From positions 1,294 through 65,293 of the forward strand of contig DAHVRZ010000003.1 in the NCBI GenBank assembly GCA_027324805.1: 64,000 bases of DNA, in the 5' to 3' direction. The DNA comes from Candidatus Parcubacteria bacterium. Lineage in GTDB: Bacteria; Patescibacteriota; Minisyncoccia; UBA6257; 2-01-FULL-56-20. Both the position numbers and the translations under genes were made by a program. Shown here one piece after another: positions 4,408-54,723 of this stretch. The notes under the pieces were generated by a model. It had not been told where the DNA came from, ran no database searches, and saw only the letters and a list, made by a program, of their open reading frames with translations. Positions within the stretch are counted from its first letter, which is position 1. Each line of letters starts with the position of its first letter.

Positions 4408-4418
4408 TAAACAGCCCT

Positions 4419-4438
4419 ATCCGCGCTCCGGCGCGGAT
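4419..4438 (+). terminator. Hairpin (ATCCGCGC-TCCG-GCGCGGAT) after the sigma-like gene
   Basis: Perfect 8-bp inverted repeat with a 4-nt loop, 12 nt after the stop codon. No clear T-run follows; the next bases form TGTTATAAT, an extended -10-like element. Confidence 0.35.
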
Positions 4439-4458
4439 ATCTGTTATAATTGCAGTAT

Positions 4459-5811
4459 ATGGATATAGTTTGGGGCATTCTGAGCGGTGCGGGAACCGTC
4501 CTTTATTACACCTGGTGGCTCTGGGTCTTTATCATTGCGGGACCGCTTTTTGTGGAGGTGTGGCTTTTTTGGAAACAGGAAACTTTCAAACATGATATCG
4601 ATTGGGTGCTCCTTGAACTTCGGATGCCGCGCGAGGTGCGCAAAAGTCCGATGGCAATGGAGCAGGTGCTCGCAGCATTGCATTCCCTTAGGAATGCGCC
4701 GGGCGACTTCCAGGAAAAATATTTGAATGGTGAGATAACGCGATGGTTCTCGCTCGAACTGGTAAGTCTTGGCGGTGAGGTTCACTTTTATATTCGTGCA
4801 CCGCGGGGACAAAAAGACCTCGTTGAGGCCGCATTTTTCTCATATTATTCCGACGTCGAGCTTGCGGAGGTGGATGATTATGTGAGCAATCTCCCGGAAA
4901 GTATGAATGAACTTTATGAAGGAGGATATGAGCTTTGGGGGACGGAGCTTGTCCTCGCCAAAAACGAGGCATATCCTATCAAAAGCTATCTTGACTTTGA
5001 AGCACCCGAGGAGGAAAAACAGTACGATCCCATTTCAATGTTTCTCGAGGTGCTCGGCAAGGCAAAGCGGGAGGAGTTCGTTGGCATCCAGTTCGAGATC
5101 GCGCCGGCAGGCGACGAATGGAAAACGCATGGCCAGCATGTGGTCGAGGAGCTTCGTTCGAAAAAAGAAGGCGGAGGACGCGGACCGGGCGCGAGTATGG
5201 GCATCGAATTCCCGCACATCCTTCCCACCTTTCCCGTCGAAAAGCACGACGGTAAAGAAGACAGTGCTATTTCGAAAATGTTTCTCCGAACTCCGGGCGA
5301 GACCGATGTATTGAAAGCGGTCGAAGAGAACCTTTCAAAGCCGGGATTCGAGACCGTAGTCCGTTTTGTCTACACCTCGCCCAAAGAGCTTTATGCCGAC
5401 ACGTTTGCCCGTCGCGGCGTCATCGGCGCTTTCAATCAATATGCTTCTAACGACCTCAATTCGTTCAAGCAGAACGAGTATATGAGTACAAGGGCGAAGG
5501 CATGGAAGTGGCCGCATATGTTTCCATCGCGTCGCGTGTATCTTCGTCGCGAGCGGATTCTGGAATACTATCGTCACCGCGAGATCCCACCGCACGTGGG
5601 CATCGGAAAGCATTTCCTCGGGAGGTTTATGAACGGCGAACATTCAGAGCACTTCATCATGACGACCCGGTCGCTTGCGACACTGTTCCACCCGCCGACC
5701 TATCTCGTGCTTACCGCGCCGCACGTCCGCCGCATCGAAAGCCGCAAGGCGGGTCCGCCGGCCGGTCTCCCGATCTATGGCGCCGAGGAAACTATCGAAA
5801 AATTCCGATGA
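4459..5811 (+). CDS. Hypothetical membrane-anchored protein (2 N-terminal TM helices plus ~400 aa soluble domain)
   Basis: Long ORF. ATG at 4459 (MDIVWGILSGAGTVLYYTWWLWVFIIAGPLFVEVWLFW) is preferred over the ORF-track TTG at 4450. Its stop overlaps the next start (ATGA at 5808-5811). Confidence 0.6.
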   Translation: MDIVWGILSGAGTVLYYTWWLWVFIIAGPLFVEVWLFWKQETFKHDIDWVLLELRMPREVRKSPMAMEQVLAALHSLRNAPGDFQEKYLNGEITRWFSLELVSLGGEVHFYIRAPRGQKDLVEAAFFSYYSDVELAEVDDYVSNLPESMNELYEGGYELWGTELVLAKNEAYPIKSYLDFEAPEEEKQYDPISMFLEVLGKAKREEFVGIQFEIAPAGDEWKTHGQHVVEELRSKKEGGGRGPGASMGIEFPHILPTFPVEKHDGKEDSAISKMFLRTPGETDVLKAVEENLSKPGFETVVRFVYTSPKELYADTFARRGVIGAFNQYASNDLNSFKQNEYMSTRAKAWKWPHMFPSRRVYLRRERILEYYRHREIPPHVGIGKHFLGRFMNGEHSEHFIMTTRSLATLFHPPTYLVLTAPHVRRIESRKAGPPAGLPIYGAEETIEKFR

Positions 5812-6341
5812 TACCCGCACCTCCTTCCTCATTTCCGACGACGTTCTGGGGCATCTACGATTTTGTCGGGGCGATGTTTATTATGGCCGACATCGTGCTC
5901 ATTATAGGACTCGCGTATTCAGTGGCGCGATCATGGCGATTCCGACCCGGTTTCCATGCCAGCGCGGCGCATGAACACAAAGGACCAAGCAAAGCGCCTC
6001 ACAAGCCGACGATGCACGATATCGTTATGCGTGAACGCTGGCAGTCGATCGTCCATAAATTCCACACCGGCACGCCTGAAGCGTCGCGTCTCGCAATCAT
6101 CGAGGCCGATTCGCTTGTGGATACTGCACTTAAGAACATGCGGATCGAAGGAGAGCATCTCGCCGACCGGCTTTCGAATCTTGAGGATGAGGATATTAAA
6201 TCCATGCAGAAGGTCTGGCGTGCACACCGCGTGCGCAATGACCTTGTGCACACGTCGGGATTCGCCATTGCGCCGCATGATGCGGAGCGGACCATGCAGG
6301 ATTACGAAGCGTTTCTGCGGGAAATAAACGTGATCGAATAA
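5808..6341 (+). CDS. Small single-pass membrane protein (178 aa) with a possible HEPN-like Rx4H motif
   Basis: Internal ATG at 5808 overlaps the upstream stop. The ORF-track extension to 5502 lies out of context inside the previous gene. TM helix FWGIYDFVGAMFIMADIVLIIGLAYSV. C-terminal region contains WRAHRVRNDLVHTSG. Confidence 0.55.
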   Translation: MIPAPPSSFPTTFWGIYDFVGAMFIMADIVLIIGLAYSVARSWRFRPGFHASAAHEHKGPSKAPHKPTMHDIVMRERWQSIVHKFHTGTPEASRLAIIEADSLVDTALKNMRIEGEHLADRLSNLEDEDIKSMQKVWRAHRVRNDLVHTSGFAIAPHDAERTMQDYEAFLREINVIE

Positions 6342-6345
6342 CGTC

Positions 6346-7827
6346 ATGCCGAAACCGGGAAAGATCCAGATCATCAAATATGCGCCGCCGCCGCCGGAGC
6401 TTCCGATATACGGACAGGTGGACCCTGCAGAGGCTTCGTTCATTGGCCGTACGAACTACGTTGCCGCGCTCGAGGAAAAGAAGTTTGTGTTTGGCATCAA
6501 ACGCGGGGATCGCAGGCGTCATCTTTATATTATCGGGAAGAGCGGGGTGGGCAAGTCGAAACTGCTCGAACTCCTGATCCGCCAGGACATCGGTTACGGC
6601 TACGGGCTTTGCCTCATGGACCCGCATGGCGACGTGATCGACGCGATCCTCGATTTTATTCCCGAAGACCGGATAAAGGACGTTGTGATCATCGATCCAA
6701 CCGATCTCGATCATCCGGCATCCTTCAATCCACTCCAGAACATCGATCCCAGTTTCAAGCATCAGCTTGCGCAAGGACTCATCGAGGTGATGGAAAAGCA
6801 GTTCGGGGCCAACTGGACCCCGCGCCTCGAGCACGTGTTTCGTTTCACCGTCCTCGCACTCCTTGATTATCCGCACGCGACGATGCGCGGCATGATTTCC
6901 ATGCTTACCGACCGAAATTACCGCCAGAAGGTCGTCGAATATATCGACGACGACATGGTGAAGCGCTTCTGGGCGATCGAATTCGCGGATTGGTCCGAGA
7001 AGTTCGATACCGATGCGATCATCCCTCTCGTGAACAAGCTCGGTCAGTTTTTGTCCGACCCGCTCCTACGTAATATCTTCGGGCAGAAGGAGAACAAGAT
7101 AAACCTCGAGGAGTTGATGAATCAAAAAAAGATCATTCTCATCAATCTCTCGAAGGGGCGTCTCGGCGAGGAGAACGCATCGTTTCTTGGTGCGATGTTC
7201 ATCACGAAGATCAAGCAGGCCGGCATGGCGCGCGCGGCGATCCCACAGAAGGATCGGCACGATTTCTATCTTTATGTGGACGAGTTCCATAATCTCGTGA
7301 CCGAAACGTTCGAGAACATTCTTTCCGAGGCGCGCAAATATGGTCTATGCCTTACGGTTGCGCACCAATATATGGGCCAGCTCATCCCGCGCGTTCAGAT
7401 GGCTGTGCTCGGCAACGTCGGCAGTATTATCGTATTCCGCGTCGGAGGCGAGGACGCCGTGCATCTTAAGCCGGAGATGGCCCCGATCTTCGACGTAAAG
7501 GATATGATCAACCTCGGCATGCAAGAGTTTTATATCAAGATGATGATCGATGGCGAAAGCTACGATCCCTTCTCGGCCGAGACGCTCAAGGTGCTCGAAC
7601 CGCCGCACCGTTCGTTCCGCAAGGAGATCATCGAGGAATCGCGGCGGAGGTATACCATTTCCGCCGATGCCGCAAAAAAACTCATTCAGGAAGAGGAGGC
7701 GGGTATCCTGCGGAGCGCCCAGGAAAAAAGCATTATCACGGGCGGCCGCGGGACCCACGGAAACCTTTCGGGCATGGGCTCTTCCGATAATAACGGCATT
7801 GACCAACCTCCCGAGCCGTTGATATGA
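6346..7827 (+). CDS. VirD4/TraG-like (type IV coupling protein-like) P-loop ATPase, HerA/FtsK superfamily, soluble
   Basis: Walker A IIGKSGVGKSK followed by the HerA/DUF87-type CLMDPHGD motif. Walker B LYVDEFHN. TraG-D_C-like C-terminal segment (AHQYMGQL...GNVGSIIVFRVGG). No TM helix. Starts 4 nt after the upstream gene. Confidence 0.8.
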   Translation: MPKPGKIQIIKYAPPPPELPIYGQVDPAEASFIGRTNYVAALEEKKFVFGIKRGDRRRHLYIIGKSGVGKSKLLELLIRQDIGYGYGLCLMDPHGDVIDAILDFIPEDRIKDVVIIDPTDLDHPASFNPLQNIDPSFKHQLAQGLIEVMEKQFGANWTPRLEHVFRFTVLALLDYPHATMRGMISMLTDRNYRQKVVEYIDDDMVKRFWAIEFADWSEKFDTDAIIPLVNKLGQFLSDPLLRNIFGQKENKINLEELMNQKKIILINLSKGRLGEENASFLGAMFITKIKQAGMARAAIPQKDRHDFYLYVDEFHNLVTETFENILSEARKYGLCLTVAHQYMGQLIPRVQMAVLGNVGSIIVFRVGGEDAVHLKPEMAPIFDVKDMINLGMQEFYIKMMIDGESYDPFSAETLKVLEPPHRSFRKEIIEESRRRYTISADAAKKLIQEEEAGILRSAQEKSIITGGRGTHGNLSGMGSSDNNGIDQPPEPLI

Positions 7828-7858
7828 TATAGTCATAAACCTTTAACGCACCAAGAGC

Positions 7859-8050
7859 ATGTTCGTTCCCTGGTGGATCATCATTCTTGTGGGACTTCTA
7901 CTTGTCTATTTGGTGCTTATGAATGCGCATCTTCACAAGCGCGTGCGGAAACTCGAATCCGTCGTCCGTCGTCTCGAAGGTGTGAGCGAGGAGGAGGTCA
8001 AGAAGCAGATCAAGGAGCGGATGACGCAATACGATGCCGGAGGGGATTAA
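7859..8050 (+). CDS. Small membrane protein (63 aa; TM helix plus charged coiled-coil tail)
   Basis: MFVPWWIIILVGLLLVYLVLM followed by a K/E/R-rich segment. Its 3' end overlaps the start of paralog 1. Confidence 0.45.
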   Translation: MFVPWWIIILVGLLLVYLVLMNAHLHKRVRKLESVVRRLEGVSEEEVKKQIKERMTQYDAGGD

Positions 8051-9842
8051 CGCTCCGACTGGCGAAACGCGCGCATGCGCGAACTGCGACACTCCGTTCG
8101 TCATTGAACCGGAGGATTTTTTGTTCTATGAACGGATGAAGGTGCCGCCACCGACATTCTGCCCGGACTGCCGGCTGCAGCGGCGGATGGTGTTTCGCAA
8201 CGAGAGAGCACTCTATAAACGGACATGCGATCTTTGTAAAAAAGCATTGATCGGTATTTATTCGGAAGGGACGCCATTCCCGGTCTATTGCAGCGAGTGT
8301 TGGTGGAGCGACAAATGGGACCCGGAAGATTATGCGATGGAATACGATTTCGGGAAGCCGTTCTTCGCGCAATGGAAAGAACTTCAAGATCGCGTCCCTC
8401 GGCAGCATACGAACAATACGGTGACGAGCACCATTGTGAACAGTGTGTATACAAATTGCGCGGGTGATATGAAAAATTGCTATCTCGTCTTCGGTGCCAT
8501 GAACGACGAGGATAGTATGTATTCCCATTATCTCAACTATTCCCGATTCTGTGTCGATGATTTGTACGTCCTGAATTCCGAACATTGCTATGAGTGCGTT
8601 GATGTCGAACAATGCAACAATGTCCGCTGGTCCCAGTCGTGCCTCGGGTGTCGGGATTCGGCGTTCCTCTTCGATTGCCGCAACTGCAATGACTGTATCG
8701 GGTGCGTCGGCCTCCGCAATAAGCAATATCATATTTTCAATAAGCCTTACTCGAAGGAAGGATATATAAAAGAAAAAGAGAGCCTCGGGCTCGACTCCCG
8801 CGCCGGCATCGGACGATTCCGCGAACGATTTATGCGCGAACTCTATTACAAACTTCCGCGCAAGCATTATCACGGACAGATGAATAAGGATTCGACGGGG
8901 GACTATCTTTCGAATTCCGAACGTACCGAGTCCGCCTTCTATACCAAAAATGCCCGCGGTTCGAAGTATATTTTCTGGGCGCAAAATGTAAATGACGTAT
9001 ACGATTATTTCGCATGGGGCGATATGGAACTTTGCTGCGAATGCGTTTCCGGCGGCTACGGCATGCATAACTGCAAATTCACCCACACATGCTGGACAGA
9101 GCTTCGCAATGTCGATTATTCAAGTCTTTGCTTTACAGGGTCGGACCTTTTCGGATGCATCGGTATGAGAAACAAGCGTTTCTGCGTGCTCAACAAGCAA
9201 TATGGCGAAGCGGAATATCGCGATATGCGGGCGCGCATCCTGGCGCAGATGGATATTGTGCCGTATCGGGATGCACAAGGGATCGAATACCGTTATGGGG
9301 AGAATTTTCCGATCGAGCTTTCGCCTTTCGCATATGCCGATACGGTTGCACAGGAGCATTTTCCGCTTTCGTCTGACGAGATCGCGACGCGCGGTTACGG
9401 CAAGCAGGGGGCGCAGGATCATGCGAATAATGCAGTGACAAAGGGCGCGGTGGACCTCCCGGACTCCATCGAAAATGTTTCGGATACGATCCTTGATGAG
9501 GTCATCGGGTGCGCGCACAACGGGTTGTGCACGCATCAGTGTTCCAACGCATTCCGGATCATTCCCGCGGAATTGGAGTATTATCGCCACAAAGATATCC
9601 CACTACCCATGCTTTGCCATAATTGCCGCCACGGGGAGCGCGTGGCCCTCCGCAATCCTCTGAAACTTTGGCATCGGAAATGCCGCTGCTCCGGCGTACG
9701 GGATGAAGAGGGGTTGTATGTGAATAGGGGAGCTCATTTCCACGGCAAGGATGCATGCCCGAACGAATTTGAGACCTCCTATGCGCCAGACCGGCCCGAG
9801 ATCGTCTATTGCGAACAGTGCTACAACAGCGAAATCGCCTGA
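8034..9842 (+). CDS. Cysteine-rich multi-zinc-ribbon protein, paralog 1 of 5 (602 aa)
   Basis: N-terminal CxxC-x27-CxxC plus CxxC-x17-CxxC (CANCDTPFVIEPEDF...TFCPDCRLQRR...CDLCKK...PVYCSECWWSDKWDP). Internal Cys repeats end in GC.G.RNKxYxIxNKxYxxEEY. C-terminal ribbons FRIIPAELEYYRH..PLPMLCHNCRH...LWHRKCRC...CPNEFETSY..RPEIVYCEQCY. No signal peptide. Confidence 0.8.
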   Translation: MPEGINAPTGETRACANCDTPFVIEPEDFLFYERMKVPPPTFCPDCRLQRRMVFRNERALYKRTCDLCKKALIGIYSEGTPFPVYCSECWWSDKWDPEDYAMEYDFGKPFFAQWKELQDRVPRQHTNNTVTSTIVNSVYTNCAGDMKNCYLVFGAMNDEDSMYSHYLNYSRFCVDDLYVLNSEHCYECVDVEQCNNVRWSQSCLGCRDSAFLFDCRNCNDCIGCVGLRNKQYHIFNKPYSKEGYIKEKESLGLDSRAGIGRFRERFMRELYYKLPRKHYHGQMNKDSTGDYLSNSERTESAFYTKNARGSKYIFWAQNVNDVYDYFAWGDMELCCECVSGGYGMHNCKFTHTCWTELRNVDYSSLCFTGSDLFGCIGMRNKRFCVLNKQYGEAEYRDMRARILAQMDIVPYRDAQGIEYRYGENFPIELSPFAYADTVAQEHFPLSSDEIATRGYGKQGAQDHANNAVTKGAVDLPDSIENVSDTILDEVIGCAHNGLCTHQCSNAFRIIPAELEYYRHKDIPLPMLCHNCRHGERVALRNPLKLWHRKCRCSGVRDEEGLYVNRGAHFHGKDACPNEFETSYAPDRPEIVYCEQCYNSEIA

Positions 9843-9852
9843 GACTTTTTCC

Positions 9853-11559
9853 ATGAACGCCGAAGAAAAGACCTGTCAGAATTGCAAAGCGGCGTTCACG
9901 GTTGAGCCGGAGGATTTTTCATATTATGAGAAAGTGAAGGTGCCGCCGCCGACGTTCTGCCCGGACTGCCGGCTGCAGCGCCGGCTCGCATTCATGAATC
10001 TCTCGAACCTTTACCGCCGGAAATGCGATCTTTGTAAAAAGGACGGGCTATCCATGTTCCACCTCTCTGCGCCGTACAGAGTATATTGCCACGAATGCTG
10101 GTGGTCGGACGCATGGGATCCTTTCGAGTATGGCCGCGATGTGGATTTCAGCAGGCCATTCCTAGAGCAATATAACGAGCTTTTGCACGAAGTGCCCGTT
10201 ATTGGGCTTACGGTTGACACGACGAACGTGAATTCGCCATACGTGAACCTTGCGGGACACGTAAAGAATTCATATCTCATATTTCATGCCGACTTCGACG
10301 AGGATTGCCTCTATGGATTTTATGTCGTGAACAATAAGAGCCTCGTCGATTGCTCGCTCATGATGAACTCGGAGCTCTGCTACGATTCCATGCACGCGTA
10401 CAAGTGCAGTGGATGTGTCGGATTGCGAAGCCAGGTGACGGAGTCGCTGAACAGCGCCTTCCTTAAGGATTGTGATAATTGCCAGGATTGCTTCGGGTCG
10501 GCGAATCTTCGAGGGAAGAAATACTATATCTTCAATGAGCCGTATTCCCGCGAGGGATATATCGAGGAGATGAAAAAGTGGAACCTTGGCTCATATGCGA
10601 TTTACAAGGATGCCGAACGCCGCGCGAACGAGGCATGGAAGAGCGTGCCGCCATGCCCGTATTTCATGGATTTCTCGGTGAACTGTACGGGGAATAATAT
10701 TTTCGAATCGAAGAACTGCAGGGATTCGTTCGAAGTGATCGCCGCCCAGGATTCGCGGTTTGTCATGATGCAATATCTGCCGACCACGAAAGATTGTTAT
10801 GACACGACGAGTTGGGGGAATAATGCGTCGCTGTGCTATGAGGCATCGAATGTCGGAGAAGGTGCGGCACAGGTCCGTTTTTCGCAGGAGTCGGGGATTA
10901 ATGCGTTCGATATCGAGTACTCGAAAGCGGCGCTGAACGGCGCGCGGCACCAGTTCGGATGCAGTGCCATCCGCAAAACGCCGTACTGCATCCTCAATAA
11001 GGCCTATTCGGAAAATGAATACAAGATACTTCGGAAGAAGGTGATCGCACATATGGACGCGATGCCGTATACCGATATGGCGGGAAATATTTATCGCTAC
11101 GGTGAATTTTTTCCGCTGGAATTCATGCCGTTCCCGTACAATATTACCCTGGCAAACAGCTTCTTTCCGCTCGCCAAAGAAAAGGCGGTGGCGAAAGGAT
11201 TGCGTTGGCATGATGACGAACCGTCGACGTATGCGACAACAATAAAGGCCGCCGACCTCCCCGATCATATCAGGGATATCGATGATGCCATCCTGAAGGA
11301 AGTGATTGCTTGTGCGAAGTGCGGTCGGGGGTATCGTGTCATCGAAGCAGAGCTGCGTTTTCTGAAGGGCCGCAATCTGCCGTTGCCGCGCGAGTGCCCG
11401 TTCTGCCGTATTGCGGAAAAGATAGGGCTTTGGGCGGCACGCCGGAAAATGACGGAGCGAAACTGCGCGGAATGCGGCGCGACATTCGAGGCGTGCTATA
11501 CCCAGGCCGAAGCGCCGCGGATCCTTTGTAAAAGCTGCTGGCAGAAACAGCTTCCGTAA
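9853..11559 (+). CDS. Cysteine-rich multi-zinc-ribbon protein, paralog 2 of 5
   Basis: Start taken at internal ATG (MNAEEKTCQNCKAAFTVEPEDF...), which matches the other paralogs. The ORF-track start at 9751 overlaps paralog 1. Same conserved N- and C-terminal Cys motifs. Confidence 0.8.
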   Translation: MNAEEKTCQNCKAAFTVEPEDFSYYEKVKVPPPTFCPDCRLQRRLAFMNLSNLYRRKCDLCKKDGLSMFHLSAPYRVYCHECWWSDAWDPFEYGRDVDFSRPFLEQYNELLHEVPVIGLTVDTTNVNSPYVNLAGHVKNSYLIFHADFDEDCLYGFYVVNNKSLVDCSLMMNSELCYDSMHAYKCSGCVGLRSQVTESLNSAFLKDCDNCQDCFGSANLRGKKYYIFNEPYSREGYIEEMKKWNLGSYAIYKDAERRANEAWKSVPPCPYFMDFSVNCTGNNIFESKNCRDSFEVIAAQDSRFVMMQYLPTTKDCYDTTSWGNNASLCYEASNVGEGAAQVRFSQESGINAFDIEYSKAALNGARHQFGCSAIRKTPYCILNKAYSENEYKILRKKVIAHMDAMPYTDMAGNIYRYGEFFPLEFMPFPYNITLANSFFPLAKEKAVAKGLRWHDDEPSTYATTIKAADLPDHIRDIDDAILKEVIACAKCGRGYRVIEAELRFLKGRNLPLPRECPFCRIAEKIGLWAARRKMTERNCAECGATFEACYTQAEAPRILCKSCWQKQLP

Positions 11560-11565
11560 CGCATA

Positions 11566-13353
11566 ATGATAGAAAATATGGAAACAAAGGTTTGTGCGAA
11601 TTGCGGAACGAAGTTCGAAGTCTCGTCCCAGGCGTCGGCGTTCCAGGCGAAGATCGGGGTGCCCTCGCCAACGTTCTGTCGCGACTGCCGCGTGGCGCGC
11701 CGCATGGCATTCCGCAATGAACGAGTGCTTTATAAAAAGAAGTGCGACGCGCCGGGGCACGATGAGATGATTGTTTCCGTCTTTGCGACGGAGAGCAAGC
11801 AACGCACCTACGACCACGCGGCATGGTGGGGTGACGCATGGGATCCTCTCGATTATGGTCGCGATATTGATTTCACCAAGCCGTTTCTCCAGCAGATCAG
11901 GGAGCTTTGGCCCGAGGTGCCTGACGTTTCGGTTCTCAATATCAACCCGGTAAACAGCGATTACTGCAACATCACCGAAGGTAACAAGAACTGCTATCTC
12001 GTTTACGGCGGCGACTTCAATGAGAACACGTCCTATTCGACCTATATCTTTCGCAGTAAGGAGTCGCTCGACACGTATTGGATACAGAACTCAGAATTCA
12101 ATTATGAGACGATTGATTGCACCGAAGGTTCGAAGCTCCTCTGGAGCCGCTACTGCGAAGGCTGTTATAACAGTGCATTCTTGTTCAATTGTCGCCACTG
12201 CCACGACTGCTTTGGCTGCGCGAATCTCGTGAATAAATCCTACTGCTTTTTCAATGAGCAGCTTACCAAGGAGGAATATGAAAAAAGGATCAAGGAATTC
12301 GATCTCTCAAGCCATGAGGGTGTGGAGCGAGCAAGGGCCCGATTCGCGGAACATTCCCTCAAATATCCCCGGCGTTTTGCGCGGATGATCAAGGCGGTGA
12401 ATTCGACCGGCGACAATATTGAGAATTGCCGCAATTGCGAGCGCTGTTTCGATGTTTTCCAGGGTGCCGAAAATTGCTCGGACGTTTTCCTTGTCTATTC
12501 GAACGTGAAGGACAGCATTGATGCGGACCACTGCGGACAGGCAAGCGAGCTCGCATACGAATCCTCGGCGGTGTATCCGGGCAGTCGCGTGCTTTTCTCG
12601 CGTTTCATCTTTAATGCGAATAATATCCAGTATTCCTACAACTGCCACAACTCCAACGATCTTTTCGGATGCATCGGTATCCGCAACAAGCAGTACTGCA
12701 TCCTCAACAGGCAATATTCAAAAGAAGAGTACGAGGGACTGGTGCCGAAGATCATCCGGCATATGAAGGAAATGCCGTATATTGACAGTCGGGGCATAAA
12801 ATACGGCTACGGAGAATTCTTTCCTGTGGAATTTTCACCGTTCGCATACAATGAGACGATCGCGCAGGAAATGTACCCGATCTCCCAAGGGCAGGCGGAA
12901 CAGTATGGCCTCCCGTGGCGCGCCCCGGAAGAAAAAGGATATGCGCCGACGAAGCACGCAAATGAACTTCCTGATCGCATTGCGGATGTGGACGATTCGA
13001 TCCTTAAGGAGATCATCGAGTGCTCGCACGGAGGAAATTGCAACGATCAGTGCACGAGGGCGTTCCGGATCATACCCTCAGAGCTTGCGTTCTACCGCCA
13101 TCTTGGCATTCCGCTCCCGCGCCTTTGTCCGATGTGCCGACACTTCGAGCGTGTCCGCCGGCGCAATCCGTATCGCCTCTGGCACCGGAAGTGCCAGTGT
13201 GCCGGAGCGGCGACCGAGAGAGGGGATTATAAGAATCTTGGCATGCATGCGCACGGCCAAGCGCACTGCGCGAATGAATTCGAAACGAGCTACGATCCGA
13301 AGCGGCCGGAAGCCGTATATTGCGAGGAGTGCTACCAGCAGGAGGTTATGTGA
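11566..13353 (+). CDS. Cysteine-rich multi-zinc-ribbon protein, paralog 3 of 5
   Basis: MIENMETKVCANCGTKFEV...TFCRDCRVARR...WWGDAWDP. The second N-terminal ribbon is degenerate: its Cys residues are lost. C-terminus FRIIPSELAFYRHLGIPLPRLCPMCRH...LWHRKCQC...CANEFETSYDPKRPEAVYCEECY. Confidence 0.8.
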   Translation: MIENMETKVCANCGTKFEVSSQASAFQAKIGVPSPTFCRDCRVARRMAFRNERVLYKKKCDAPGHDEMIVSVFATESKQRTYDHAAWWGDAWDPLDYGRDIDFTKPFLQQIRELWPEVPDVSVLNINPVNSDYCNITEGNKNCYLVYGGDFNENTSYSTYIFRSKESLDTYWIQNSEFNYETIDCTEGSKLLWSRYCEGCYNSAFLFNCRHCHDCFGCANLVNKSYCFFNEQLTKEEYEKRIKEFDLSSHEGVERARARFAEHSLKYPRRFARMIKAVNSTGDNIENCRNCERCFDVFQGAENCSDVFLVYSNVKDSIDADHCGQASELAYESSAVYPGSRVLFSRFIFNANNIQYSYNCHNSNDLFGCIGIRNKQYCILNRQYSKEEYEGLVPKIIRHMKEMPYIDSRGIKYGYGEFFPVEFSPFAYNETIAQEMYPISQGQAEQYGLPWRAPEEKGYAPTKHANELPDRIADVDDSILKEIIECSHGGNCNDQCTRAFRIIPSELAFYRHLGIPLPRLCPMCRHFERVRRRNPYRLWHRKCQCAGAATERGDYKNLGMHAHGQAHCANEFETSYDPKRPEAVYCEECYQQEVM

Positions 13354-13390
13354 CAAAAAAAGACCCGCCAAACCAAAAAGGTTCGTCGGG

Positions 13391-14014
13391 TCAGGATAGA
13401 GCGATCATGGGACGCTGTTTCCGCTTCAGTATCCAAATGAAGACAAGAACAGTGGAGCACATCATCATGGCGCGGATGGGATAGAGCGTCGCAAGGAGAT
13501 CGTGGCCCGAAGCCGCAACATAGATGCCAAGGATCGCGGCGGCCATTTCCGCGGTCCAAATGGACGGCGGCTCCGGCGTGCCCGGCCGCTTCCATGTCCA
13601 CAGTCGGCGATAGGTCGGATAATAGGCGACCGTCATGACGACCTGGAACCCTCCGACGCCCACGAGCGGCATATGCACCTCCAGCCAGGCAATGAAGGTT
13701 GCGGCGGAGATGGCAAGGCATATCCATTCGTTCGGATGGAATCGGATGCCTTCCTTTCGGTTTTTCACAATGAGCGTCCCGAGAATGAAGGTCACTGCGA
13801 GACAGTCCGTCGTATTCGCGACGTTGCGCACAAGATCGTGCGACGGCGCCGAAAGATAGGTGACGAGGCTCATGATGACGCCTATTTCAAAGATGATCCA
13901 GGTTGCGATCGGCGGATGCGCTTCTCCGCGGGCGATCTTCAGACAATAGGCCCCTCCCATGAAAAGGATAAGGGAGGCGGACGCCATCGCCGCAAAGGAT
14001 GGGAGCAGTCCCAT
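13391..14014 (-). CDS. Polytopic integral membrane protein (about 6 TM helices), hypothetical; opposite strand inside the array
   Basis: 207-aa ORF with repeated hydrophobic helices. Convergent with paralog 3 and divergent from paralog 4. Confidence 0.55.
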   Translation of the reverse strand: MGLLPSFAAMASASLILFMGGAYCLKIARGEAHPPIATWIIFEIGVIMSLVTYLSAPSHDLVRNVANTTDCLAVTFILGTLIVKNRKEGIRFHPNEWICLAISAATFIAWLEVHMPLVGVGGFQVVMTVAYYPTYRRLWTWKRPGTPEPPSIWTAEMAAAILGIYVAASGHDLLATLYPIRAMMMCSTVLVFIWILKRKQRPMIALS

Positions 14015-14102
14015 AACATCCTCCAGGGAGTGGATTTGCTGGCCGAATTATAACCAATGTACGCAATTTATGCAATATGGTACGATAAGCGATATTGAGC
14101 AT

Positions 14103-15836
14103 ATGGATCAGACGACCGCAACCTGCACGAGCTGTAAATCGCCGTTCGTGATCGAATCCGATGACCTCATTTTCTATAAAAAATTCGGTGTCCCTGCGCC
14201 GAAGATGTGCTTTTTTTGCCGTTCGCGTCTCCGCCTCGCATTCAAGAATGAACGATCGTATTACCATCGAAGGTGCGACAAATGCGGTAAAGAAACCATC
14301 TCGATGTACAGCACGAATAAACCATATGCCGTATGGTGCTACGATTGCTGGTTCTCCGATGATTGGGATGCCGCGGAATATGCGCGGGACTATGATCCTT
14401 CAAAACCGTTTCTTGAACAATTCGCCGAACTTTGGCGCTCGATGCCCAAGGTAGCACTCATCGGCGTTCGCAACGTGAACTCCGAGTATGTGAATATTTC
14501 GGCGGACAATAAGGAATGTTATATGATCGTGGAATCTTCGAACAATGAGAATTGCGCCCATTGCTATTGGATCCAACAATGCCATGACTGCGTTGACACT
14601 TCGTTTGCGCACCGCACGGAACTTTCCTATGAGAGCGACGATTGCTATAGCTGCTATGGTTTACGCTACAGCAAAGGATGCAGTGACAGCCGGGACAGTT
14701 TTTTTCTCCTTGATTGTCGGGGATGTTCGGATTGCATCGGTTGCATGAATCTTCGCAATAGAAAATATTGCATATTCAACGAGCAACTCACAAAGGAGGA
14801 ATATGAGAAGGCGAAGGACGGTATGCGGCTCGATACGGCGAGCGGTGTCGCGGCGGTCGGGAAGAATTTTTCAGACTTTGTGAAAACCCAGCCACTTCGT
14901 TATGCGGAGGTCTACAACGCTCCCGGATCGAGCGGCGATTATATCAACAATGCGAAAAATTGTCGTTATTGTTTTCATTGCTATGAATCCGAGGATTCTA
15001 AATACGGCGTCCATGTATGGGAAGGGGCGAAGGACTGCATGGATGTCGATACTGCCGGCCGCGGCGCCGAACACGTATACAATGCCATCAATTCCGGCAT
15101 CAATGTTTCGCATTACGTAGGTACGGCCGTCTGCTGGAGCTGTTCGTTCATGGAATATTCCTATTATTGCTTCAATTCAAACCATTGCTTCGGTTCCGTT
15201 GGACTCAGGAAAAAAGATTATCACATTCTTAATAAGCCATATGAGAAGGAGGAATTTGAAGTGTTGAGAGGAAAAATAGTCGCCGAGATGCGGGGAAAAG
15301 GGGAATATGGAGAATTTTTCCCGCCGGCCATAAGCACATTCGGTTACAACGAAAGTGCTGCGCAGGAGCAGTTTCCCCTTACGAAGGAAGGGGCCATCGC
15401 GCTCGGATTCTCATGGGAAGATACGCCGCGCGGAACATTTGGCAAAGAGACCATAGCATGGGAGAGCATCCCCGACTCGATACGGGACCTCGGAGCCTTG
15501 GATCCGGCAAAGGAAGTGTTTTTGTGCACCAAGTGTTCGAAGAACTATCGGATTATCCCGGCCGAACTGCAATTCTATAAGCGGCTCGAGATACCTTTAC
15601 CGCGGCTTTGCCCCGATTGCAGGCATGAACGCCGCTTTGCCGCGCGCGGACCGAACCAGCTCTTTGAGCGCTCATGTAGCTGTTCGGGGTATGGATTGGC
15701 CGGTAGCACCTATGCGAACGCTTCGCGCCATTTCCATGGCAATGGCGAATGTCCCAACAAATTTATGACAAATTATACTCCAGATTATGATGGCATGGTG
15801 TACTGTGAGCAATGCTATAACGCTGAAATTACATGA
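14103..15836 (+). CDS. Cysteine-rich multi-zinc-ribbon protein, paralog 4 of 5
   Basis: Start at ATG 14103 (MDQTTATCTSCKSPFVIESDDLIFYKKFGVPAPKMCFFCRSR...; ATG 14070 is an alternative). The ORF-track start at 13959 overlaps the minus-strand membrane gene. Family motifs conserved through the C-terminal ...GMVYCEQCYNAEIT. Confidence 0.8.
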   Translation: MDQTTATCTSCKSPFVIESDDLIFYKKFGVPAPKMCFFCRSRLRLAFKNERSYYHRRCDKCGKETISMYSTNKPYAVWCYDCWFSDDWDAAEYARDYDPSKPFLEQFAELWRSMPKVALIGVRNVNSEYVNISADNKECYMIVESSNNENCAHCYWIQQCHDCVDTSFAHRTELSYESDDCYSCYGLRYSKGCSDSRDSFFLLDCRGCSDCIGCMNLRNRKYCIFNEQLTKEEYEKAKDGMRLDTASGVAAVGKNFSDFVKTQPLRYAEVYNAPGSSGDYINNAKNCRYCFHCYESEDSKYGVHVWEGAKDCMDVDTAGRGAEHVYNAINSGINVSHYVGTAVCWSCSFMEYSYYCFNSNHCFGSVGLRKKDYHILNKPYEKEEFEVLRGKIVAEMRGKGEYGEFFPPAISTFGYNESAAQEQFPLTKEGAIALGFSWEDTPRGTFGKETIAWESIPDSIRDLGALDPAKEVFLCTKCSKNYRIIPAELQFYKRLEIPLPRLCPDCRHERRFAARGPNQLFERSCSCSGYGLAGSTYANASRHFHGNGECPNKFMTNYTPDYDGMVYCEQCYNAEIT

Positions 15837-16105
15837 TTGAAACCGACATAGCGAATGAAATAAATACGATTAAAGAACGTAATCGTCGCGTGGAAGCGGA
15901 TAAGGCTTGGGAGAGGAGTATGCTTCGGATAGGCTCTATCACCGTTATCACATATATCATTGCGGCGTTCGTTATGTATACTATCGGGGTCAATGGATAT
16001 CTCCTGAATGCACTCATCCCGTCCATTGGATATTTTCTCTCCACTCAATCGCTTCCTGCAATAAAACAATGGTGGATCCGCCGTTGCTATAAAAAAGAGA
16101 AATGA
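15833..16105 (+). CDS. Small membrane protein (90 aa), translationally coupled on both sides
   Basis: ATGA overlap with the paralog 4 stop (15833-15836) and with the paralog 5 start (16102-16105). N-terminal charged helix followed by 2 hydrophobic segments. Confidence 0.5.
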   Translation: MIETDIANEINTIKERNRRVEADKAWERSMLRIGSITVITYIIAAFVMYTIGVNGYLLNALIPSIGYFLSTQSLPAIKQWWIRRCYKKEK

Positions 16106-17895
16106 ACGCCGCCGAAACAAAGATCTGCTTAAACTGCGATGCGGTCTTCACTATTGAGCTGGAGGATTTTGCGTTCTACGGTAAATTGAACGTTCCACCG
16201 CCAACGCGATGCCCCCGCTGCCGGCTTCGGCGACGGCTTTCCTTCATGAACGAGCGGTCGCTTTACCGAAGCATATGCGCACATTGCGGGAAGAAGATCC
16301 TCTCGGTTTTTTCGCCAGGCTCCCGCCGCCTCGTATACTGTCCTGCTTGCTGGTGGTCTGATGTCTGGGATCCGATGGACTACGGCACCCAATACGATTT
16401 TTCGCGCCCATTCTTCGCCCAATACAGGGAGCTTCTCGAAAGGATCCCGCATCCTTCGCGGGAAACGGTCGAAAGCACTCTCGTGAACAGTGATTATTGC
16501 AATATCACGTCGTACCTCAAAAATTCTTACCTCGTCTTCAATTCGGACTATGATGAGGATTGTGCGTACAGCTCTTACTTGGAACGAAGTTCCCGTTGTG
16601 TTGATATTACGATGGGAGATCTTTCGGAACTTTGCTACGAAAGCCATAATATCTACAAATGCAATCGCGTTATTTTCTCCGACAACTGCAATGAGTGTGT
16701 CGACGTCGCATTCTCGAAGGATTGCATTGGATGCGAACATTGCTTCGGATGCGTGAACCTGCGAAACAAGCAGTATTATATTTTCAACCGGCCATTCACC
16801 AAAGAGACGTATTTCCAGGAGATTGAAAAATACGACATTGGATCGTATAGGGTCCGGCAGGAACTGACCGAACGACTCAATGCGCTCAGCCGCTCCCTGC
16901 CCAAACGATATGCGCATGGCCTTAAAAATCTGAATGTGAAGGGGGATTTCATTTTCAATTCCAAAAATGTCACGGAAAGCTATGAGGTGACCGACGCGAA
17001 GGACTGCAAATACTGTCATTTCCTTTTCATCGCCTCCACAAACGATGCTTATGATTTTACGATGTGGGGCGGGGGTGCCGAGCGCGTATATGAATGCATG
17101 GGTACCGGAGGAGGGCAGAGCGATATCCGTTTCTGTTACGAATGCTGGTCCTCCGATACGCGCAATCTCGAATACTGTATGTATTCTCAAGGAAGCGACC
17201 TTTTCGGATGCATGGGGGTGCGAAAGAAACAGTATTGCATTCTCAATAAACAATATTCAAAAGAGGAATACGAGGCGCTCCACAGCCGGATACTTGAGCA
17301 GATGAGATCAATGCCTTACATTGACGCAAAGGGAAATACGTATTCGTACGGCGAATTTTTTCCATCGGAAATATCGCCATTCAATTATCGCGAGACGATG
17401 GCGCAGATGTACTTTCCGCTTACGCAGGCGGAAGTTGTCGCGCAGGGATTCAATGGCAAGCATTTTGACGAGGCGAAGCATTACGATATAAGCATTGACG
17501 CCCCCGGATTGCCGGACAACATAAAAGACGTTCGGGATTCTATAACCGATGAGATTATAGGATGCGTCCATCGGGGGACATGCGGGGAGCAGTGCACGAC
17601 GGCGTTCAGGATCACGCCGACCGAACTTGAGTTCTATCGGCATATGGGCTTGCCTCTGCCGAGGTTATGTCCCAATTGCCGTCATTATGCACGGTTGTCC
17701 GACGGTCCCGGTTTGGATTTTTTCGAACGGCAATGCATGTGTCTTGGTCAAAGCTCCAAAGAGGGGCATTATCGGAACCTCTCGGTGCACGCTCACGGCG
17801 TTCATCCATGCACCAACACCTTTGAAACCGCGTATGCTCTCGATCGTCGCGAGACCGTCTATTGCGAACAGTGCTATCAGGCGGAAACGGTATGA
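16102..17895 (+). CDS. Cysteine-rich multi-zinc-ribbon protein, paralog 5 of 5
   Basis: MNAAETKICLNCDAVFTIELEDFAFYGKLNVPPPTRCPRCRLRRR...LVYCPACWWSDVWDP...FRITPTELEFYRHMGLPLPRLCPNCRH...CTNTFETAY..RRETVYCEQCY. Confidence 0.8.
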   Translation: MNAAETKICLNCDAVFTIELEDFAFYGKLNVPPPTRCPRCRLRRRLSFMNERSLYRSICAHCGKKILSVFSPGSRRLVYCPACWWSDVWDPMDYGTQYDFSRPFFAQYRELLERIPHPSRETVESTLVNSDYCNITSYLKNSYLVFNSDYDEDCAYSSYLERSSRCVDITMGDLSELCYESHNIYKCNRVIFSDNCNECVDVAFSKDCIGCEHCFGCVNLRNKQYYIFNRPFTKETYFQEIEKYDIGSYRVRQELTERLNALSRSLPKRYAHGLKNLNVKGDFIFNSKNVTESYEVTDAKDCKYCHFLFIASTNDAYDFTMWGGGAERVYECMGTGGGQSDIRFCYECWSSDTRNLEYCMYSQGSDLFGCMGVRKKQYCILNKQYSKEEYEALHSRILEQMRSMPYIDAKGNTYSYGEFFPSEISPFNYRETMAQMYFPLTQAEVVAQGFNGKHFDEAKHYDISIDAPGLPDNIKDVRDSITDEIIGCVHRGTCGEQCTTAFRITPTELEFYRHMGLPLPRLCPNCRHYARLSDGPGLDFFERQCMCLGQSSKEGHYRNLSVHAHGVHPCTNTFETAYALDRRETVYCEQCYQAETV

Positions 17896-17942
17896 CCGCG
17901 GCTTCAGGCCGCGCCCAAATAGTGTTATAATTGTTTTGAGAT

Positions 17943-20105
17943 ATGGCTCCTTTGTCACCTCAATCGACCGAACTCGAGAACAACGTCATTTATTTTGCGA
18001 GGACGAATTTCAGGAATTCGAGCCATCTTTTCGGTATCAAGCGCGCCGACCGGAGGCAACATACCTATGTGGTAGGGAAGACGGGTACGGGCAAAAGCTC
18101 GATGCTCAATAATATGATCGTGCAGGACGTTGCGAATGGCGAAGGTGTTTGTGTGGTTGACCCCCACGGCGAGCTTGTCGAAGGCATCCTCGACAAAATC
18201 CCCGAGGAGCGCATGAAGGATGTGGTCTATTTCAATCCGGCCGATCCCGATTTTCACGTCGGTTTCAATATCCTTGAGCTTCCCGACCCGAAATATAAGC
18301 ATCTTGTCGCCTCGGGCCTTATGGCCATCTTTACGAAAATATGGGCGGGTGTGTGGTCCGCCAGGATGGAATACATACTTAATAATTGCATTTTAGCGCT
18401 CCTCGATACGCCGGGCTCGACGCTTCTCGGCATTCCGCGGCTCCTGAGCGACAAAACCTACCGGCAGAAGATCATCGGGAATGTAAAAGATCCCGTGGTG
18501 AAGGCGTTTTGGATAAACGAGTTCGAGAGCTGGCAGGACCGGTTCCGCAATGAGGCGATCGCGCCGATCCAAAACAAAGTGGGACAGTTCCTTTCGACGT
18601 CGCTCGTACGCAACATCGTCGGACAGTCGAAGAGCACGATCGATGTGTTCGATATCATGAACGAAGGAAAGATATTCCTTGTGAACGTCTCGAAGGGGCG
18701 CATCGGCGAGGACAACTCCGCGCTTCTCGGCGCAATGCTCATCACGAAGATCCAGCTCGCCGCCATGGAACGCGTGCGTATCCCCGAAGAAGACCGCGTG
18801 GATTTTTATCTTTACGTCGACGAGTTCCAGAACTTTGCGACCGACTCCTTTGCGGGGATCTTGTCGGAAGCGCGCAAATACCGCCTTAACCTCACGCTCG
18901 CGCACCAGTATATCGGACAGCTTGTGACCGATACCTCGACGCGCGTACGCGATGCTATTTTCGGCAACGTGGGGACGATGATCGTATTCCGCGTCGGGGC
19001 TACGGATGCGGAATTCCTCGAAAACGAATTTTCCCCGGAGTTTACAATCGAGGACATTGTAAACCTGCCAAACTACCATATCTATATCAAACTCATGGTG
19101 GACGGGGTGACCGCAAGACCATTCTCGGCAATGACATTGCCGACATTCAAGGTAAAGTCCTCCGAGGTTATGCAGGAAGATATCATTAAGATGTCCCAGA
19201 AGTATTATGCCCGGCCGCGCGAGGCGATCGAGGCCGAGATCAATCGTTGGAGCGGCATTATGGACGCCGCCGGCTCTCCCGTCGAAGCCGCTCCAAGCGG
19301 AGGGGGGAGCGGCGGATCCGCGGAGCGGCCGGTGACGACGCCGGATGGCTTGGTGCAGAAGACCGCGCCGATTGCAACCGCTTCCGGCATCCGCTATCAG
19401 GCTGTTTGTTCGTCGTGCGGCAACCTTACGACGCTTCCGTTCGAACCGACACCCGGCCGCCCCGTCTATTGTCGGGATTGCATGAAGAAAATCGAATCAG
19501 GGGAGATAAAACCCGTCCGCGCAACATGGAGTCCTTCAAAAGGATCTTCGGTTCGCGCAAAAGAACGATCCACCGAGGCGCTGAGTCGTCTCGGCATCGA
19601 ATTCGCCGCGGAAGAGCCATCGCATTCGTCCGACGGCTCTTCAATGCCTCCCCGACAACCTTCAATGCCGCTGCCCCGCCGTCCACGGAGACCGATCGGT
19701 CCGACACCCGCCCCTTCATCATTACCGGATTCGATCCCGTCGAAGAGTCCTTCGAAGCCCGTTGCGCCACGATCCTTGGCAACACAACCGTCTTCGGGAG
19801 GATCGGAGGCGCAACAAGAGACCATTTCGCTTGTCGAACTTACGAAGCCGCAAGAGAAATCGGTTCAAAAATCAAAACATCCTCCCCATGCCGAAGTGAA
19901 TATCGCATCCCTGCGCGATGCCATCCGCGCATCGCTTGCCGCGGATCTCGGCGCCGCGTCGTCCGGTGATGCATCCGATGACGGTTTTGGAGTGACACCT
20001 CCGCTGTCGGAAAACGATGTCGCCCGGCCAAAGGAATCTCCGGCGGCGAATGTAAATAACGACGATGAAGACTACGAAGAAGACCATTCGCGCCGGAACC
20101 GTTAA
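17943..20105 (+). CDS. VirD4/TraG-like P-loop ATPase (paralog of 6346-7827) with C-terminal zinc ribbon and long disordered P/S/acidic tail
   Basis: Walker A VVGKTGTGKSS followed by CVVDPHGE. Walker B LYVDEFQN. AHQYIGQL...GNVGTMIVFRVGA. C-terminal CSSCGNLTTLPFEPTPGRPVYCRDCMKK (CxxC-x18-CxxC), then ~210 aa low-complexity tail ending NNDDEDYEEDHSRRNR. Confidence 0.8.
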   Translation: MAPLSPQSTELENNVIYFARTNFRNSSHLFGIKRADRRQHTYVVGKTGTGKSSMLNNMIVQDVANGEGVCVVDPHGELVEGILDKIPEERMKDVVYFNPADPDFHVGFNILELPDPKYKHLVASGLMAIFTKIWAGVWSARMEYILNNCILALLDTPGSTLLGIPRLLSDKTYRQKIIGNVKDPVVKAFWINEFESWQDRFRNEAIAPIQNKVGQFLSTSLVRNIVGQSKSTIDVFDIMNEGKIFLVNVSKGRIGEDNSALLGAMLITKIQLAAMERVRIPEEDRVDFYLYVDEFQNFATDSFAGILSEARKYRLNLTLAHQYIGQLVTDTSTRVRDAIFGNVGTMIVFRVGATDAEFLENEFSPEFTIEDIVNLPNYHIYIKLMVDGVTARPFSAMTLPTFKVKSSEVMQEDIIKMSQKYYARPREAIEAEINRWSGIMDAAGSPVEAAPSGGGSGGSAERPVTTPDGLVQKTAPIATASGIRYQAVCSSCGNLTTLPFEPTPGRPVYCRDCMKKIESGEIKPVRATWSPSKGSSVRAKERSTEALSRLGIEFAAEEPSHSSDGSSMPPRQPSMPLPRRPRRPIGPTPAPSSLPDSIPSKSPSKPVAPRSLATQPSSGGSEAQQETISLVELTKPQEKSVQKSKHPPHAEVNIASLRDAIRASLAADLGAASSGDASDDGFGVTPPLSENDVARPKESPAANVNNDDEDYEEDHSRRNR

Positions 20106-52895: not shown

Positions 52896-53406
52896 GTAAT
52901 GATATTACCGCACTCTCGCGGGTTTTCAAAGGGAGTTTGCGGATGCAAGTATCACAGAAAAATTCCTGGCGCGGAATATAGAAATGCATCCCCTTGCGCG
53001 TCCCGCACGACGCGCAAAGTGCATCCTCGGGGTCCCAACCAAGCACGGCGAATGCCGCTCTCCAGGAAAAACTCCTCTCGGCGATCATACGCCATATCCC
53101 CGGTTCGGGCTGCCCTTCGGGCAAAAGCATACTTAAAAATTGCAGGTTAATAATGGAAATACCGGCCATCCCTTCTTTTAATGCATCGATGATCTGTGTC
53201 CCGTGCGCCTCAATAAAACGCACACGGAGCACCGTTCCGGGCTCGAGATGTGGCGCAAGCTTTGATGTGATCTTTCGGGAACTCTTCGCTTTGCCGGTCA
53301 TCCTGCCGAACCGTTCGGTGAACAGTGTATACCGTCCGTCGAGGTCACCCTGTGGATATTTCCTGAGCGAAACGGCGGACGTGACATATTCCTGCATACG
53401 AGCCAT
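52882..53406 (-). CDS. recO: RecO-like DNA repair protein (short form)
   Basis: N-terminal OB-fold-like region. C-terminal CASCG...x17...CDTC Zn motif as in RecO. At 174 aa it is shorter than typical RecO. Confidence 0.45.
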   Translation of the reverse strand: MARMQEYVTSAVSLRKYPQGDLDGRYTLFTERFGRMTGKAKSSRKITSKLAPHLEPGTVLRVRFIEAHGTQIIDALKEGMAGISIINLQFLSMLLPEGQPEPGIWRMIAERSFSWRAAFAVLGWDPEDALCASCGTRKGMHFYIPRQEFFCDTCIRKLPLKTRESAVISLHVSL

Positions 53407-54716: not shown

Positions 54717-54723
54717 GATATTC

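Follow-up and report, generated by a model that had tools for sequence, protein, structure and literature searches.

The 64-kb window analyzed here (64,000 nucleotides of contig DAHVRZ010000003.1, Candidatus Parcubacteria bacterium) carries at positions 4459–20105 a twelve-gene locus, the form taken in Paceibacteria by a chromosomal membrane-ATPase module that is found throughout Patescibacteria; this is an ATPase system related to type IV secretion systems (T4SSs) with a previously undescribed partner family, which we call PAR. As judged from predicted models, the core of the module is a split membrane ATPase, ancient in Patescibacteria, in which a protein resembling the VirB4 N-terminal domain (NTD) is combined with ATPases resembling type IV coupling proteins (T4CPs). 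Five Cys-rich paralogs of ~600 amino acids (aa), PAR1–PAR5, lie between the two ATPases, ATP1 and ATP2, which are themselves paralogous and soluble. The gene order originally predicted, namely DUF8128, TM178, ATP1, s63, PAR1–PAR3, TM207 (opposite strand), PAR4, s90, PAR5 and ATP2, was confirmed for all 12 genes by open reading frame (ORF) listing and translation and agrees with public gene calls; gene sizes and starts were checked against those of the matching contig JAJYSK010000002.1 (GCA_021793615.1), which runs in reverse orientation relative to the window. From DUF8128 through ATP2 the junctions measure −4, 4, 31, −17, 10, 6, 37, 55, −4, −4 and 47 bp (negative values are overlaps; public gene starts were used for TM178 and PAR4). 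Most of them had been described as overlaps or gaps below 15 bp, which holds for 7 of the 11 and fails for the remaining four (31, 37, 55 and 47 bp).

A T4CP-like ATPase with a detached N-terminal half

ATP1 (6346–7827, + strand, 493 aa) and ATP2 (17943–20105, + strand, 720 aa) are P-loop ATPases of the TrwB/VirD4/TraG type and share 46% identity over 432 residues, the ATPase of ATP2 spanning residues 1 to ~445. With the Pfam models TrwB_AAD_bind, T4SS-DNA_transf and TraG-D_C, ATP1 scores 34.3, 25.4 and 23.8 bits (cut-offs 20.5, 20.1 and 22) and ATP2 48.4, 30.4 and 28.5 bits, and both exceed the DUF87 gathering score as well. Walker A (GKSGVGKS/GKTGTGKS) and Walker B (YVDEF) motifs are intact, and a Kyte–Doolittle scan revealed no transmembrane (TM) or hydrophobic segment in either protein, so that the prediction of two VirD4/TraG-like ATPases, the first of them soluble, is borne out. 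Both miss every NCBIfam equivalog cut-off (250–650 bits) by a wide margin, and TrwB, a weak match to ATP1, was the only solved relative seen for the ATPases in the PDB; we therefore regard them as divergent T4CP-like members. A Pfam FtsK_SpoIIIE match stayed below threshold. Downstream of its ATPase domain, ATP2 contains a treble-clef CxxC-x17-CxxC zinc finger (residues 485–516, nucleotides 19395–19490; zf_Tbcl_2, 54.1 bits at a cut-off of 27; TIGR04272, 56.1 bits at a cut-off of 36), followed by a long, Ser/Pro-rich C-terminal tail with an acidic end. This finger is present in none of 47 ATP1 homologs.

The first gene of the module (4459–5811, + strand, 450 aa, in an ORF open from 4450) belongs to the PF26449 (DUF8128) family. 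Its AlphaFold model (32-sequence alignment; pLDDT 79, pTM 0.76) shows long membrane helices at the N-terminus, together with a cytoplasmic domain of alpha/beta type, and the latter is predicted to adopt a VirB4-NTD-like fold. A sequence-profile search for this relationship returned noise only, and the link between DUF8128 and the VirB4 NTD is therefore a structural one. That DUF8128 corresponds to the N-terminal half, here detached, of a T4CP-like ATPase follows from three independent lines. The phage profile phrog_5156 (824 positions) matches DUF8128 at positions 78–298 (E 1.4e-10) and ATP1 and ATP2 at positions ~394–810 (E 4e-56 and 6e-60, respectively), so that one profile covers the same two halves fused in one protein. 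A ~790-aa protein from the Candidate Phyla Radiation (CPR) encoded at 12983–15355 of locus L011 (L numbers denote the loci compared) aligns through residues 29–364 to DUF8128 (hhalign 98%, E 2e-13) and has its ATPase at residues 375–713. Finally, a fused PF26449 + PF10412 form of ~790 aa is widespread, with 66–82% identity across genera, and resides on the same long contigs as the split modules. The fused DUF8128–ATPase is a third paralog, seen at L011, L020, L043 and L164–L166; it usually occupies a housekeeping context without VirB3, VirB6 or VirB8 Pfam matches and is preceded by a conserved helical protein of ~135–150 aa.

A fused form also appears to exist in large Bacillus phages. Phage homologs of the ATPase half, ~23–27% identical, include Bacillus phage SPO1 gp27.4 (L162), phage G gp156 and proteins of CP-51 and D6E. 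In SPO1 gp27.4 (~900 aa) some 417 N-terminal residues precede the ATPase match, a layout matching that of the fusion, but a direct hhalign comparison with DUF8128 is weak (probability 23%), so that the phage link rests on the phrog_5156 profile, in which both halves are found together; no PAR homologs, for which no search was made, were seen in those phages. Phage homologs of phrog_5156 are sometimes mis-annotated as MsbA.

The split genes share a motif, PPxxLP[IVM][YF]G, which is found at the C-terminal end of DUF8128 (5740–5811, within a disordered tail) and at the N-terminal end of ATP1 (6376–6410; PPPPELPIYG), and which occurs in 32 of 48 ATP1 homologs versus 0 of 49 ATP2 homologs. It could be a gene-fission scar or a common docking peptide. 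Among 36 loci with at least 6 kb of downstream sequence, DUF8128 is followed by an ATPase in 33 and by TM178 in 22, and TM178 (5808–6341, + strand, 177 aa) is a conserved core partner of the ATPase module. This single-pass protein (TM residues 14–43) has a cytoplasmic helical domain with an R-N-x3-H motif that is kept in 42 of 49 homologs and resembles the HEPN RNase motif. HEPN Pfam scores are sub-threshold (HEPN_Cthe2314, 16.3 bits versus 27.1; HEPN_Swt1, 14.7 versus 27.5), and because a profile search of the PDB yielded no HEPN protein and sub-threshold Rpb5-N matches only, we describe TM178 as HEPN-like tentatively.

With canonical T4CPs (VirD4/TrwB/TraD/TraG) ATP1 and ATP2 share the P-loop core, the family signatures and the Walker motifs. 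They differ in lacking the N-terminal TM domain, the anchor being placed on the separate DUF8128 gene; in lacking relaxase or mating-pair-formation genes nearby; in being paired with a VirB4-NTD-like protein and occurring as two paralogs per genome plus a third, fused one; and in the zinc finger and long disordered tail of ATP2. VirB4/TrwK is resembled in the predicted fold of DUF8128, that of the VirB4-specific NTD, whereas DUF8128 has no sequence similarity to VirB4 NTDs and the ATPase half is closer by sequence to T4CPs, the VirB4-type models giving marginal local matches only (TrbE, E 1.8e-4, 19.5 bits versus 1020; Mbov_0397, E 2.3e-4; CD1110 VirB4-like, E 5.6e-3). Moreover, NTD and ATPase are split over two genes, and VirB3, VirB6 and VirB8 are absent beside them. 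The earlier statement that VirB4, VirB6, VirB8 and relaxases are missing stands at the level of sequence families, with no such match among those ORFs of 150 aa or longer that were scanned in the 64-kb window, and needs amending for DUF8128 in view of its predicted VirB4-NTD-like fold. Type VII (ESX) systems differ in that their ATPases are multidomain FtsK/SpoIIIE-type rather than T4CP-type proteins; no WXG100-like, EccB, EccD or MycP family match was found, and PARs are predicted to be 600-aa zinc proteins, not helical hairpins.

Patescibacteria are reported to hold about two orphan T4CP homologues per genome in nearly all genomes, 5,713 in total with 148 near virB4, their role being open and the possibility that they were "exapted for other functions" left open (PMC12102498). 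ATP1 and ATP2 are probably counted among these 5,713. Our literature searches returned no description of the PAR family or of the DUF8128/ATPase/PAR combination, in keeping with the original view that the gene combination belongs to no characterized system.

The PAR family and its arrays

PAR1 (8034–9842, 602 aa, 38 Cys), PAR2 (9853–11559, 568 aa, without the insert in the last zinc finger), PAR3 (11566–13353, 595 aa), PAR4 (14070–15836, 588 aa by the public gene call) and PAR5 (16102–17895, 597 aa) are all encoded on the + strand. PAR2–PAR5 are 38–46% identical to PAR1, and each PAR has 32–38 Cys residues, no hydrophobic segment on the Kyte–Doolittle scan and no evident signal peptide, as expected from the earlier description of five tandem, soluble, Cys-rich paralogs. 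They are mildly acidic (pI ~6), with basic helices following the zinc knuckles.

A PAR profile search gave more than 6,000 matches, of which every source-named one is titled "hypothetical protein". All matches with an organism name are from Patescibacteria (Paceibacteria, Lipton-, Jorgensen-, Uhr-, Giovannoni-, Staskawicz-, Nomura- and Sungbacteria); record titles in one series of metagenome-assembled genomes (e.g., "Saccharibacteria", "Gammaproteobacteria") are probably unreliable. Exhaustive searching of cluster representatives returned 2,294 PAR clusters at 50% identity with E <= 1e-30 and 5,332 with E <= 1e-3. Nothing significant was found for PARs in Pfam, NCBIfam, PADLOC or PHROGs apart from an occasional zf_Tbcl Pfam domain; matches to phrog_9336 and phrog_15341 (E ~1e-3) were dismissed. 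A 60-sequence PAR profile gave nothing in the PDB at E <= 1, and Foldseek searching of a PAR model gave nothing at E < 0.5. The Cys-rich family thus matches no characterized Pfam, NCBIfam, PADLOC or PDB family, as the original prediction supposed.

The AlphaFold model of PAR (pLDDT 86, pTM 0.87), taken together with hhalign comparisons, predicts a zinc-finger pair, a duplicated beta-solenoid of ~400 aa, a linker and a second zinc-finger pair. The N-terminal pair is homologous to the C-terminal pair (hhalign 99.7%, E 1e-25), and solenoid unit 1 to unit 2 (hhalign 99.9%, E 6e-36). Across 300 full-length PARs, three Cys4 sets are 89–99% conserved, the ends being the most conserved and the solenoid the most variable part. 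PAR is a previously undescribed, very large, Patescibacteria-restricted family with a zinc-finger/beta-solenoid architecture, and this architecture, like the VirB4-like fold of DUF8128, rests on predicted models. zf_Tbcl_2/TIGR04272 (PF23477), which matches the ATP2 finger clearly, scores just below threshold with PAR fingers (25.5 bits, including PAR5, and 16.7 bits; cut-off 27), and PAR fingers differ in forming two homologous pairs that flank a 400-aa solenoid. Known beta-solenoids (curli CsgA, ice-binding proteins, left-handed beta-helix acyltransferases and trimeric autotransporter heads) align with low scores and rmsd values up to 12 Å, and PAR has no sequence similarity to them, no hexapeptide Pfam match and no signal peptide. 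One family member, P0388 (731 aa), carries an N-terminal GNAT acetyltransferase domain and has several zinc-knuckle Cys replaced, and represents a rare fusion or else a merger introduced by gene calling.

The arrangement of PAR genes was examined in 80 PAR-anchored 22-kb loci containing 294 PAR ORFs (longest ORFs, labeled by best phmmer match to the window proteins). All 294 are co-directional with the anchor, and a locus holds up to 11 full-length copies. The overlapping loci L015 and L007 (contig JALLOO010000001.1, 421–28967) together form an array of at least 17 tandem co-directional PARs at the start of a single-cell-genome contig, ~29 kb in length or roughly 3% of a ~0.9-Mb genome. PAR neighbors within one locus are ~44% identical, whereas the best match in another locus, most of these being from different genomes, is ~62% identical, and in 98.5% of cases a PAR's closest relative is found at another locus. 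PAR arrays are therefore composed of ancient, non-redundant subfamilies, and the same identities rule out recent tandem duplication or gene conversion. The 300 PARs fall into 94 clusters at 50% identity, with 12 of 295 being same-cluster duplicates within a locus. Their order is shuffled; no conserved order of subfamilies was found across the 94 clusters, from which it follows that PARs are not fixed-position subunits. PAR5 belongs to the same subfamily (>=50% identity, cluster Y) as the single PAR that is kept between ATP1 and ATP2 in L001.

Proposed coupling of PARs to the ATPase module

A module gene is present in 23 of the 80 PAR-anchored loci, against a rough chance expectation of at most ~7% (assuming two to three such genes per ~0.9-Mb genome), which amounts to an enrichment of ~4-fold or more. 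Viewed from the module, 15 of the 22 DUF8128–TM178-type loci that have 6 kb or more of sequence downstream contain PARs, and the same gene order turned up in dozens of independent loci. The full DUF8128–TM178–ATP1–(s63)–PAR(n)–ATP2 order is seen in L001, L096, L102 and L129; L068 runs from the contig edge through ATP1, seven PARs and ATP2; and eight further loci (L006, L026, L049, L056, L084, L094, L113 and L138) follow the order through the PAR array, with ATP2 beyond the fetched sequence. PARs are also inserted between DUF8128 and ATP1 (L115, L130, L131), between TM178 and ATP1 (L008), between ATP1 and ATP2 (many loci), after ATP2 (L004, L043, L053, L144) and beside the fused paralog (L011, L020, L043). 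The fused paralog was considered as a constant PAR neighbor and rejected, three long-contig loci being devoid of any PAR neighbor. With thousands of homologs and synteny in dozens of independent loci, more often than chance, the PAR–ATPase adjacency is not accidental. The proposed pairing of the ATPases with a private Cys-rich family is accordingly supported in part, as recurrent synteny: since ATP1 and ATP2 are adjacent in several genomes and most PAR arrays lie away from ATPases, PARs are accessory rather than core and nest in the module preferentially, not obligatorily.

Our preferred reading, put forward tentatively as a possibility short of probable, takes PARs to be clients of the ATPase machine that are recognized via their conserved ends. 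By analogy with the VirB4 NTD in type IV secretion, DUF8128 and TM178 would anchor rings of ATP1/ATP2 at the membrane, on its cytoplasmic side. The motor would then recognize PARs by their conserved zinc-finger ends, possibly via the homologous zinc finger and tail of ATP2, and would deliver them to or across the membrane, alone or by feeding a canonical T4SS encoded elsewhere in the genome. The solenoid, as the variable part, would serve as functional surface, with different specificities provided by the many ancient subfamilies. The ATP2 zinc finger is found in 15 of 21 loci with a PAR versus 7 of 24 without (Fisher p = 0.007, in a test that ignores phylogenetic non-independence). A more specific proposal, which we consider distinctly unlikely, is that an export or assembly apparatus specific to the CPR, driven by a split VirB4/T4CP-hybrid ATPase, has PARs as its cargo or its building blocks. 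It might, for example, be a heteropolymeric surface filament made of beta-solenoids, or an adhesin repertoire, in which the homologous zinc-finger pairs at the ends would join PARs head-to-tail and dozens of ancient subfamilies would give host-contact specificities.

Several observations weigh against PARs being clients. As many as 57 of the 80 PAR loci have no ATPase within 10 kb, including singletons in unrelated housekeeping contexts; conversely, ATP1 and ATP2 abut without a PAR in seven loci (L082, L099, L101, L104, L111, L117 and L124), distant modules of DUF8128 plus a single ATPase never occur with PARs, and the fused paralog usually lacks PAR neighbors. CutA1 (divalent-ion tolerance), an M17 aminopeptidase and a cytidylyltransferase-like gene also occupy the ATP1–ATP2 interval, so this part of a long co-directional operon may be no more than permissive. 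PARs carry no recognizable secretion signal, and their termini are predicted to be folded zinc fingers; such termini are atypical for T4SS substrates, which are generally regarded as being translocated unfolded. No polytopic channel protein is constant in the module. To these points are added the noise-level outcome of the DUF8128 profile search, the phylogenetic non-independence left out of the Fisher test, and the report that the T4CP homologue of a cultivated Saccharibacterium is not essential (PMC12102498).

The first of these points speak equally for co-location without coupling, in which PARs would be cytoplasmic zinc-binding enzymes or nucleic-acid or protein binders whose arrays build up in housekeeping operons that are co-directional, highly expressed and permissive, the ATP1–ATP2 interval being one such site. 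We rate this explanation as somewhat unlikely. [quoted passage not shown] CutA1, M17, cytidylyltransferase-like genes and a ~98-aa ORF are found between ATP1 and ATP2, among PARs, in L008, L026, L027, L049, L086, L089, L092, L096, L098, L100, L102, L129, L138 and others, and could reflect either a metal theme or a permissive operon. What co-location does not account for readily is the enrichment of PARs near the module, their independent insertion at several module positions and the correlation of the ATP2 zinc finger with PAR presence, all of which are more in line with PARs as clients.

Genomic surroundings and implications

The remaining genes of the locus encode small or polytopic membrane proteins that recur sporadically beside ATP1 or PARs. 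s63 (7859–8050, + strand, 63 aa) consists of a TM helix at the N-terminus and a charged tail on the cytoplasmic side, and has homologs directly after ATP1 in L001, L027, L049, L056, L082–L084 and L092. The membrane protein s90 (15833–16105, + strand, 90 aa) overlaps its neighbors by 4 bp at each side and has a homolog within the PAR array of L058. TM207 (13391–14014, − strand, 207 aa), polytopic as judged from its hydrophobic segments and without a family match in Pfam, breaks the PAR array; its homologs adjoin PARs in L030, L037, L074 and L123.

Upstream of the module lie SecD, SecF and then a gene (3370–4407, + strand) for a 345-aa protein with sigma70 region-4 and HARE-HTH (RNAP-delta-like) domains (Pfam Sigma70_r4 and HARE-HTH; NCBIfam RNAP delta sub-threshold). 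This gene is immediately upstream of and on the same strand as DUF8128 in 61 of 67 loci, distant module classes included, and its product may be part of the system or a regulator. Between it and DUF8128 a terminator-like scan marked a GC-rich hairpin with a 9-bp stem (4418–4439, + strand; consensus match only), a possible terminator or transcription-unit boundary. Promoter-like sites (21, versus 14.9 ± 3.2 in shuffled sequence) and terminator-like sites (20, versus 21.1 ± 4.2) are not clearly above expectation. The best + strand promoter-like site in the module (7799–7828, 10/12 match with an extended −10 TG) is located just upstream of s63 and the PAR array and hints at a possible internal promoter. 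Downstream follow TrmD, whose gene is overlapped by ATP2 over 41 bp, a two-ORF ComEC, FtsW, MurG, GluRS and MurC, and farther on in the window MreB, MurA, ProRS, RecO, S2, ScpAB and DnaX. The region is chromosomal core of a Patescibacteria genome; flat GC (0.48–0.57), housekeeping flanks and conserved upstream neighbors rule out a mobile element or genomic island.

This setting bears on two further explanations of the module. In the first, its core would act as a motor that translocates DNA, serving natural transformation or DNA salvage together with ComEC, and PARs would be accessory DNA-binding or processing factors. T4CP-type ATPases are DNA translocases in conjugation. ComEC is placed two genes after ATP2, as an ORF for the competence channel domain (20846–22063, + strand) followed by one for the metallo-beta-lactamase domain (22138–22983, + strand), and is within 3 kb of ATP2 in 6 of 28 loci, among them a distant module class; the DNA-binding sigma-r4/HARE-HTH gene, the basic helices after PAR zinc knuckles and a weak local NCBIfam match of the ATPases to the archaeal DNA-import ATPase CedD point in the same direction. 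However, ComEC is not adjacent in the other 22 of the 28 loci, and its position may be inherited gene order; the CedD match covers the P-loop region only; and PARs are acidic overall and resemble no known DNA-binding or nuclease fold. We consider a DNA-uptake role unlikely.

Still less probable, in our view, is a defense or conflict system, with PAR solenoids as a sensor repertoire and HerA/FtsK-type ATPases together with a membrane HEPN-like RNase, TM178, as effectors. The conserved R-N-x3-H motif with its sub-threshold HEPN matches, weak PADLOC matches of the ATPases to mad8, HerA and DndH, and the sensor-like combination of a variable middle with conserved ends in PAR would fit such a system. 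Against this, the HEPN assignment stays below threshold, the PADLOC matches are generic P-loop ones, and PADLOC-DB v2, which contains no model of PAR, DUF8128 or TM178, yields no specific defense-system match and left these three and the small proteins without any hit. The neighborhood (SecDF, sigma-like gene, TrmD) is fixed and housekeeping rather than a mobile or variable island, and PAR subfamilies, at ~62% identity between loci, are ancient rather than of fast turnover.

Elsewhere in the window, a DUF11/DUF7619 surface-type protein (50955–52895, − strand) is separated by the RecO-like gene (52882–53406) from a pilin-like protein (53448–54929, − strand) whose N-terminus has a methylation motif and which also contains a Laminin_G_3 lectin-like domain; the two are candidates for a role at the cell surface or in host contact.

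Patescibacteria account for a large part of bacterial diversity, and their orphan T4CP-like ATPases are here given a defined architecture, with a VirB4-NTD-like membrane half (as predicted), a single-pass partner, and split and fused forms. The identification of PAR as a candidate client family makes the role of these ATPases testable. PAR itself is one of the larger uncharacterized families specific to Patescibacteria, with thousands of 50%-identity clusters, and an array of at least 17 PAR genes on one contig is a strikingly large commitment for a minimal genome. Were there no functional link, PAR and the DUF8128–VirB4 relationship would still provide new annotations for thousands of "hypothetical proteins". 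If the link between PARs and the ATPases is functional, it would represent a new way for epibionts to export or deploy proteins or to handle DNA, and a PAR export or assembly apparatus, if real, would constitute a new secretion/assembly class and a major missing piece of the interaction between Parcubacteria epibionts and their hosts.

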